Source of the DNA: a virus
Strand: one strand, 5' to 3'
Length of the DNA stretch: 56,620 nucleotides
IMG/VR virus record: IMGVR_UViG_3300031566_000038
In this document: positions 1 to 453 of the stretch, piece by piece
Position numbering within the stretch: position 1 is the stretch's first letter
How the letters are laid out: each line of letters begins with the position of its first letter
Notes under the pieces: model-generated
Database searches by the model: none
Told to the model about the DNA's origin: nothing
The model's input: only the letters and a program-made list of their open reading frames with translations
Made by a program: the position numbers and the translations under genes

Positions 1-14
1 TGTTCTCCAGGATA

Positions 15-37
15 CCCCCTCCTTCAGGTGGGGGAGG
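15..37. repeat. GC-rich hairpin motif CCCCCTCCTTCAGGTGGGGG, copy 1 of 2
   Basis: A near-identical 20-nt imperfect palindrome recurs at 425-444 in the same orientation. No U-tract follows on either strand, so it is not an intrinsic terminator. Confidence 0.5.
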
Positions 38-424
38 AATGGTGAAGCCCTGCGGCGAGCATCGATTCGCTAGAATCGAAACGGTCACCAGCAATAACTT
101 CCAAATCTATAAAAAAGTGAGTGTTTTGCGAAAGCTAAATACTAAAGCCATCCTGGAACACTCAAACCAGTGGTGCATGACAAACCAGCTAGAAAGCTTC
201 GCTGCTAGGTCACGACTTCCCCTCGACCAGTTAAGACAGGTTTTTTTCCTTGAGGCACTGAGTCTTTGAACTCTGTTTAACTCACAAGGCACAGAGCAAC
301 GGACTGGGGCGGCATCCGAAGGTGTGTTGACTAATGTCTCTGTCTTAACGGCTACTAACAACTTTTGTACCTTTCTTTGTTAGTGGTCTGGTCAACTAGT
401 TACCCTTGTAAGTCACCTCACAAG

Positions 425-447
425 CCCCCTCCTTTAGGTGGGGGTAA
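425..447. repeat. GC-rich hairpin motif CCCCCTCCTTTAGGTGGGGG, copy 2 of 2
   Basis: Direct repeat of the 15-37 motif with one substitution. Lies immediately downstream of the ParB-like gene. Confidence 0.5.
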
Positions 448-453
448 TTGACT

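Follow-up and report, generated by a model that had tools for sequence, protein, structure and literature searches.

A probable IscB-type IS200/IS605 element that has lost its nuclease gene and kept its omega-RNA beside a ParB-like gene of a tailed phage

The IMG/VR virus record IMGVR_UViG_3300031566_000038, a stretch of 56,620 nucleotides (the window in what follows, meaning this stretch at its full length), opens with a low-coding segment of about 450 bp that lies beside a gene for a ParB-like protein and is bracketed by two nearly identical palindromes. What is this segment? A first-pass annotation of the window, made from the letters alone, had offered three readings: a small structured non-coding RNA flanked by processing or stability hairpins, a pair of binding sites for the adjacent ParB-like protein in the manner of a parS centromere, or a recombination site. 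Its description of the palindromes is accurate. The 20-mers CCCCCTCCTTCAGGTGGGGG (15-34) and CCCCCTCCTTTAGGTGGGGG (425-444) both lie on the plus strand in direct orientation and differ by a single loop base, and the genome-wide motif search that it had proposed returns exactly these two matches, with up to three mismatches allowed, in 56,620 bases, with none in any of 100 shuffles. We conclude that the segment is very probably a 455-bp non-autonomous insertion sequence (IS) of the IS200/IS605 family, belonging to its IscB (HEARO/ISC) branch, a deletion derivative that carries an omega-RNA and for which we propose mobilisation and guiding in trans.

The extent of the element is given by natural alleles that carry or lack it. 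An exact look-up of the 293-aa ParB-like protein returned 15 contigs (10 of them displayed as L001-L010), 12 of which are filled and three of which (L004, L005 and L007) are empty beside the identical protein. L001, part of a 69-kb contig, matches the window at 99.99% identity and continues past its left edge; its insert of 455 bp (L001 10884-11338) corresponds to window position 452 down to -2. The limits originally given for the segment were right in location, with the qualification that the window begins 3 nt inside the full element, whose left-end terminal 3 nt lie off the window. With slashes marking the junctions, the filled site in L001 reads ...GGAAGTAGA/GTCAATTA...ACATTG/ATGACAAAA and the empty site in L004, L005 and L007 reads ...GAAGTAGA/ATGACAAAA; written on the RNA strand, the filled site is ...AGGAAGTAGA/GTCAATTACCCCC...GGAGAACATTG/ATGACAAAAACC and the empty site ...GAAGTAGA/ATGACAAAAACC. 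Both junctions are base-exact, and there is neither a target-site duplication nor a terminal inverted repeat, as is the case for IS200/IS605 elements. The insertion sits in the gap between the ParB-like stop codon and the next gene's start codon, and the boundary on the omega-RNA side coincides exactly with position 1 of the corresponding Rfam model. The features of the locus, in window coordinates, are the following.

1 to 452 (true extent -2 to 452), plus strand (the transposon top strand): probable non-autonomous, ORF-deleted (open reading frame-deleted) IscB-type IS200/IS605 element, delimited by filled versus empty sites.
15 to 34, plus strand: left-end subterminal imperfect palindrome, starting 17 nt inside the boundary, with the same position in the full-length relatives L028, L270 and L275.
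24 to 86, minus strand: remnant of the last 20 iscB codons (DRFDSSESMLAAGLHHSSPT) and stop, from tblastn against the L028 IscB, with 15 of 20 residues identical.
130 to 211, minus strand: 3' extension of the omega-RNA with two or three more hairpins, followed by a degenerate iscB start, from alignment with IscB-linked relatives and the consensus fold.
212 to 452, minus strand: omega-RNA scaffold (HEARO RF02033), from the Rfam match.
425 to 444, plus strand: right-end subterminal imperfect palindrome, which ends 8 nt before the boundary and doubles as the first stem-loop of the omega-RNA.
448 to 452, plus strand: TTGAC, the last five bases of the right end and the transposon-encoded cleavage motif, from the sequence and the flanks of five insertions.
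453 to 468, minus strand: predicted guide segment 5'-AAAAGCAGGAAGTAGA-3', placed by its position in flanking phage DNA.
454 to 1335, minus strand: ParB-like gene (293 aa; PHROG 12305, E = 2e-12; no Pfam match).

Other alleles extend this series. L003 (10884-11113) has the element at the same site with an additional internal deletion, in which the first 204 nt are kept and are followed by the second half of the left-end hairpin (..GTTAAAC/GGAGGGGGTATCC..). In L009 (4167-4269) the same element is joined to another flank, ATGAAGCC... (ATGAAGCCTGATTGTCG...), again beside ATGA; this flank, which matched none of the fetched sequences, may mark a second insertion site or come from a chimeric assembly through another copy. 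The record of mobility thus consists of presence/absence polymorphism at one site, a single copy of the element in the window, and a second flank of uncertain assembly. We also noted that the contig L010 stops exactly at the deletion breakpoint of L003.

The ends of the element have the anatomy of the same family. A palindrome lies near each end, 17 nt (left) and 8 nt (right) inside the boundary, the two in the same orientation, and three full-length relatives have the same layout; each palindrome folds on either strand into five G-C pairs, a T.T (or A.A) mismatch, two further pairs and a 4-nt loop, with the former iscB stop codon in the loop of the left-end hairpin. In IS608 the hairpin-to-cut spacings are 19 and 10 nt. 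The end geometry is canonical for IS200/IS605, and the recombination site of the first-pass annotation survives in this broad sense only, the palindromes being subterminal hairpins of a transposon of this type. The earlier view that they form hairpins without U-tracts is also borne out: no U-tract terminator follows either the 15-34 or the 425-444 hairpin on the minus strand, the terminator-scanner calls on the plus strand at 436-461 are weak and straddle the element boundary, and neither palindrome is a G+C-rich hairpin running directly into a U-tract. The terminal TTGAC differs at positions 3 and 5 from the target motif that flanks the left end off the window, which most relatives show as TTCAT on the top strand and which at the window site reads GTCAT; a relation at positions 3 and 5 is likewise reported for ISGst elements (Meers et al., bioRxiv 10.1101/2023.03.14.532601). 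On the RNA strand the flank is ATGA at all five insertion sites of the subfamily (TCAT before the left end on the top strand), and about ten further left ends from motif scans have ATGA(A) 17-20 nt past the hairpin. This RNA-strand target motif, ATGA(A), fits the motif reported for OgeuIscB, NNRR/NWRRNA. By-eye pairing of the 4-5 nt 5' of each hairpin with TTCAT and TTGAC, the 'DNA guide' of TnpA, yielded nothing convincing and we make no claim of it. The element thus has in common with IS608, ISDra2 and ISGst1-5 the absence of terminal inverted repeats and target duplication, the direct palindromes and insertion 3' of a pentanucleotide; it differs from them in that no tnpA occurs in the sampled ~75 kb of the phage and in that its accessory gene was iscB, not tnpB.

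Two observations concern the gene on the other side of the insertion. The downstream gene, of 278 aa, starts with the ATG of the ATGA target motif, and in filled contigs the gene callers move this start 14 codons downstream. Off the window, at L001 11326-11341, the left end of the element puts GGAG 7 nt upstream of the ATG of this gene and replaces its native ribosome-binding region. As a general rule, that the ATG of ATGA starts the next gene was dropped, being true at only two of the five sites.

The RNA is identified by an Rfam covariance-model scan of the whole window, a check that had been suggested at the outset. HEARO (RF02033; gathering score 83) matches the minus strand from 452 to 212 over model positions 1-211 of 211, at 122.5 bits and E = 6.8e-25, and is the sole non-tRNA match above threshold in the window; a permissive scan of positions 1-700 added just noise matches (Flavi SL6 and HgcC) well below threshold. 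HEARO RNA is the omega-RNA of IscB, a transposon-encoded RNA-guided nuclease related to Cas9. The proposal of a structured non-coding RNA was therefore correct in that a large structured RNA lies here, and mistaken as to its flanks: the RNA is a minus-strand omega-RNA, and the palindrome at 425-444 is its first hairpin, nested in the 5' stem (GUCAAUUA...UAGUUGAC), not a stability element. The scaffold of IscB omega-RNAs derives from the right end of the transposon, and the guide is 5'-adjacent, outside the boundary (Meers et al.). In the window the predicted guide extends over the final codons and the stop codon of the ParB-like gene, and the 5' flanks of four related elements are mutually unrelated.

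To gauge the state of the RNA we aligned eight omega-RNAs, comprising the window copy, four IscB-linked sequences and three others, and predicted the structure from the same alignment. The consensus of 94 pairs reproduces the HEARO fold and adds 3' hairpins that extend to the iscB start. Compensatory, two-sided change is seen in 39 of these pairs, a value reached in none of 500 shuffles, and 91.6% of cells are paired, against 33-41% with the partners slid. The window copy keeps 88 of the 94 consensus pairs, and its closest IscB-linked relatives, L028, L270 and L275, keep 92-94; in helix 9 it has a wholly different sequence and has retained the pairing. The hairpin at 425-444 (helix 2) is almost invariant across relatives and free of two-sided change, which fits since this sequence is also read as DNA. 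The omega-RNA scaffold is thus largely intact, with early signs of decay.

The origin of the element is apparent from its relatives. A scan for CCCCCACCTNAAGGAGGGGG found at least 119 metagenome, 107 genome and 21 viral stretches, on bacterial, archaeal and viral contigs, in which the hairpin occurs in two contexts. One, GTCAAnnA-hairpin-CTTG, is the start of the omega-RNA; the other is ..ATTCCT-hairpin-T(n)TCC, followed 17-20 nt on by ATGA(A), or by TTAAA/ATAAA in other subfamilies. In L028, which shares its sampling project with several of the phage contigs, both contexts lie on one strand 1,585 nt apart, and the 433-aa ORF between them has RRXRR (6e-60) and HNH (2e-12) domains and is IscB. 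Homologues of this protein led to two more complete elements, L270 and L275, in phage-like contexts, and the IscB proteins of the three full-length elements, at 419-433 aa, are 77-100% identical to that of L028. These elements are 1629, 1630 and 1624 bp long, against 455 bp for the window copy. All three start with GTCAATTA and a hairpin and end with a hairpin and ..GGAGAnnTTTG, after which comes ATGA; in the alignment of all four elements, identity begins at GTCAATTA after unrelated sequence and ends at ..CCTGGAGAnnTTTG. The omega-RNA adjoins the IscB ORF in the same orientation in L028, L270, L271 and L275, which is not the case in the window.

In the window copy the first 244 nt, the omega-RNA, are 87% identical to L028 and the last 88 nt are 93% identical. 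The middle of the iscB ORF is missing, and its start ATG is destroyed by a 2-nt insertion. Since both ends, the omega-RNA and the stubs of iscB match L028, the window copy is an internal-deletion derivative of an IscB element, and nothing between its IS200/IS605-type ends is a functional protein gene, as in PATE elements. Of the full-length IscB elements it has the ends and the ATGA flank; they measure 1.62-1.63 kb and have an intact iscB. With the HEARO/IscB OMEGA systems it has in common the match to the full model, a 5' stem enclosing a CCCC..GGGG hairpin, a 5' end at the boundary and a co-oriented upstream gene; it departs from them in the missing IscB ORF, in six broken pairs and in an insertion of 9 nt in one loop. 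PATE elements are known that lack an ORF and still encode omega-RNAs, and about 1.5% of iscB genes have tnpA nearby (Meers et al.). The window copy resembles the PATEs, including those related to ISGst1/ISGst5 of Geobacillus stearothermophilus (bioRxiv 10.1101/2023.03.14.532601), in its subterminal hairpins, its want of a protein gene and an omega-RNA needing a nuclease from elsewhere, and differs from them in that it resides in a phage, not a bacterial chromosome, in its visibly recent deletion with iscB stubs, and in its natural presence/absence polymorphism.

Gene-less omega-RNA elements of this kind recur. Mini elements of ~0.3-0.43 kb without an ORF, with a HEARO-type right end and a left-end hairpin, occur in unrelated metagenome contigs (L128 91-400, L011 on the minus strand at ~430 bp, and L087). 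In the Pseudobacteriovorax sp. metagenome-assembled genome JBNKNM01 (L131-L229), more than 20 contigs end ~76 nt into a right end that is 93% identical to the window element, and L146, from the same assembly, is a mini copy of ~200 bp. JBNKNM01 is a high-copy reservoir of the same IS subfamily, and Pseudobacteriovorax a candidate host lineage of the phage.

An element of this composition would depend on partners. Pfam searches of the 62 window ORFs of at least 90 aa found no RRXRR, Y1_Tnp or TnpB/OrfB domain, a single free-standing HNH ORF being the only hit; for the flanking genes, out to 9.5 kb on the left and 9 kb on the right of the window, the recorded domains include no RRXRR, Y1_Tnp or OrfB. 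With neither IscB nor TnpA encoded in the window or on record for its flanks, the nuclease and the transposase must come from elsewhere. For the nuclease, L028 offers a possible source. L028 and the window both contain a ~55-nt promoter-like repeat (96% and 85% identity), probably a phage-specific promoter, and L028 genes occur in the same sequencing runs as the phage; on account of this repeat and the co-occurrence we assign L028 to the same phage lineage. L028 has no overlap with the region from 9.5 kb left of the window to position +65.4 kb, and walking from an L028 gene gave 4-5-kb contigs that end at the repeat. The copies of this repeat (GAATTTTGCTTGTAACCTTnnGAAATAATAAAGCTCTACTGATCTAC) lie at window 27741-27803 (plus) and 34498-34552 (minus) and at L028 7483-7537 (plus), with 85-96% identity, and assemblies break at it (L276 and L277).

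Omega-RNA synthesis depends on transcription entering from the upstream gene, and IscB elements show an orientation bias relative to that gene (Meers et al.). The ParB-like gene, which is not part of the element, is co-oriented with the omega-RNA, its stop codon is 1 nt from the element, and its orientation matches this bias. On the minus strand no terminator-like site separates the gene from the element, and upstream of the gene, at 1407-1380, is a promoter-like site. The ParB-like gene is likely the source of read-through transcription into the omega-RNA.

These elements of the locus suggest the following scenario. A ~1.63-kb element lost iscB by internal deletion, with both ends, a complete omega-RNA gene and the ORF stubs left behind. 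A TnpA of the Y1 (HUH) type, acting in trans, would read the hairpins at 15-34 and 425-444 on the single-stranded plus strand, make its cuts 17 nt ahead of the left hairpin and 8 nt past the right, and insert the element 3' of TTCAT-like sites with no duplication. Read-through from the ParB-like gene would yield a minus-strand omega-RNA whose 5' ~16 nt (AAAAGCAGGAAGTAGA) serve as a phage-derived guide. An IscB supplied in trans, for instance from a full-length sibling such as L028, could load this RNA, and the complex would cut element-free copies of the phage locus beside ATGA (AAAAGCAGGAAGTAGA/ATGACA), leading to retention or spread of the insert.

Several points weigh against an element still moved and loaded in trans. 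Six of the 94 pairs are broken in the window copy, four of them in the 3' hairpins near the dead iscB start, and one loop has an insertion of 8-9 nt, so that the omega-RNA may already be decaying. Its transcription is a step that we infer. TnpA was found neither in the window nor on record for the flanking genes, as would be expected of a non-autonomous element, and the transposase step rests on the anatomy of the ends. The link between L028 and the window consists of the ~55-nt repeat and co-occurrence in samples, so that L028 may lie on another genome, and the second insertion site in L009 could be an assembly chimera. The closest competing explanation accepts the same element and denies it any function: it would be a decaying relic of an IscB IS, neither a working guide RNA nor mobile, surviving harmlessly between genes. 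The deleted iscB ORF with its destroyed start codon, the broken pairs and the extra loop insertion are all as such a relic would have them, as are the further internal deletion of L003, which indicates that decay is continuing in the population, and the absence of encoded IscB and TnpA from the window. It accounts poorly for a deletion that spared exactly the omega-RNA and both ends, for a helix 9 that was replaced and still pairs, which indicates past selection on structure, for an indel of the empty allele that falls exactly in the predicted target, and for a closely related IscB in the same phage lineage and samples. On balance we put the relic at slightly short of an even chance.

The indel in question is a 5-bp duplication. 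The empty alleles have GAAGTGAAGT (L004 5259-5273, L005 and L007) where the filled flank, matching the flank at window 453-460, has a single GAAGT; the three contigs, all from one study, count as a single allele. The duplicated unit spans positions 4-8 counted from the ATGA motif; its limits are unambiguous, since the period-5 run has a length of exactly one unit. In the outgroups, L258 and L259, with ParB-like proteins 83% and 86% identical, GAAGT is present once, and the duplication is therefore derived. Besides the element and the duplication, L004 and L001 differ over 11.1 kb by five substitutions and one 9-nt indel; with so few differences, an indel within the 16-nt predicted target is unlikely by chance (roughly 0.003 by our own estimate). 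IscB is reported to make staggered cuts with 5' overhangs. Its cuts probably fall at 3 and at 8 or 12 nt. Were the target strand cut 3 nt and the opposite strand 8 nt away from the motif, the ends would have 5' overhangs of 5 nt, and filling in and rejoining this 3/8 break would duplicate exactly positions 4-8. The product would have mismatches to the guide from position 9 onwards and would be a resistant allele; since IscB tolerates no mismatches at positions 1-13/14, the duplicated allele should escape the guide.

The duplication is thus suggestive of a scar of staggered IscB cleavage or of a resistance allele to it. A further and more tentative step would make the orphan omega-RNA an active guide-only homing cassette, loaded by the IscB of a sibling element from the same phage lineage and cutting the insert-free genomes of co-infecting phages, which we consider possible and, at perhaps one chance in a few, rather unlikely. 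If true, the locus would document from nature RNA-guided homing among phages together with an allele that resists the drive; the literature on IscB/omega-RNA systems already discusses homing between co-infecting phages.

The remaining explanations concern the palindromes and ORFs taken by themselves, and fare far worse than a non-autonomous IscB-type element. That the palindromes are parS-like sites of a partition or packaging centromere, the reading the first-pass annotation found attractive, draws on adjacency to the weakly ParB-like gene and nothing else. We rejected it: the segment is absent beside the identical protein in L004, L005 and L007, beside homologues at 54-86% identity and from L258 and L260-L264, the 20-mer recurs as a conserved end of IscB-type elements on hundreds of unrelated contigs from bacteria, archaea and viruses, any protein binding the hairpins would be a transposase, the direct-repeat arrangement is that expected of IS200/IS605 ends, and the segment matches HEARO over the full model. 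It is correspondingly very improbable. A comparably slight chance attaches to the idea that the palindrome at 15-34 begins a second, tandem HEARO copy cut by the window edge, as its near identity to the first hairpin of the omega-RNA might suggest. L001, L002 and L009 continue across the edge, with 18 nt after the hairpin and then the ATG of a phage gene, and with no HEARO scaffold; the 15-34 hairpin is preceded by CATTCCT, not GTCAATTA, and in all full-length relatives lies at the 3' end of iscB; and no truncated HEARO match appears at 1-50 even at E <= 10.

The first-pass annotation had described two mutually overlapping and unconvincing short ORFs, at 39-269 (plus) and 107-361 (minus), both of which exist, and had reasoned that conservation of the former, together with an unconserved motif, would speak against its readings; in the event it is the motif that related elements conserve, and the ORF is not conserved. 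Since both reading frames are shifted in L002 and L009, two near-identical copies, by a 1-nt indel at window 124-127, neither ORF is a gene. That the segment encodes a small protein from either ORF, with the hairpins as regulators, is the least credible proposal of all, given that these ORFs have no ribosome-binding site, overlap each other, lie over covarying RNA structure, are removed in L003 as well as frameshifted in L002 and L009, and correspond in relatives to the 5' untranslated region of iscB.

Every component of the proposed system has precedent: HEARO is a curated family, IS200/IS605 derivatives that keep an omega-RNA without an ORF have been described, more than 16% of HEARO/IscB loci have already been classed as viral or prophage, and homing among phages is an existing idea. 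What the locus adds is the resolution of unexplained palindromes and a low-coding stretch to a named element with base-exact boundaries, which removes the parS idea, and a natural series of a full-length sibling, an ORF-deleted copy, a further-deleted copy and an empty site with a target lesion. This series makes testable both the notion that ORF-less elements keep their omega-RNAs for nucleases in trans and that of nuclease-driven homing between co-infecting phages. Should the duplication be a cleavage scar or resistance allele, it would amount to field evidence of RNA-guided homing and counter-selection in viruses.

The phage itself is tailed and uncultivated, with tail fibres, tail and virion proteins, a DnaB-like helicase, a processivity factor and two tRNAs in the window, and the longest contig gives its genome at least 87.5 kb. 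A blastn search of window 1-3000 against annotated phage genomes gave no match, and neither did the IMG/VR collection as searched with an exact 24-mer and the ParB-like protein. The 87.5-kb and 69-kb contigs (ERZ27256834 k141_4468797 and ERZ27256827 k141_3302299) stop within 2 nt of each other at about window position -11,517. This common stop, ~11.5 kb to the left of the window, suggests a genome terminus or another repeat, possibly another copy of the IS.

Other features of the window are of separate interest. Two tRNAs, tRNA-Phe(GAA) and tRNA-Ile(GAU), lie on the plus strand at 27074-27448, where a third, marginal tRNA-like match at 27393-27448 (30 bits against a threshold of 29) was not called by ARAGORN. 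A free-standing ORF immediately upstream of one of the promoter-like repeats, at 34591-35205 (minus), encodes an HNH endonuclease (Pfam HNH, 5e-08); it weakly resembles the HNH part of the L028 IscB and is probably a gene for a homing endonuclease. An unusual protein for a phage, of 884 aa, is encoded at 2489-5143 (plus): it matches the shoulder domain of the major vault protein (3e-27), a vault repeat and SPFH/Band 7. The related phage L260 has a conserved counterpart of 897 aa, and in the empty-allele strain the gene differs by an in-frame indel of 9 nt. Finally, adjacent cytidylyltransferase-like/NUDIX and nicotinamide phosphoribosyltransferase genes at 46235-48770 (plus) form an NAD+ salvage pair, presumably of the kind that phages use against NAD-depleting defence.

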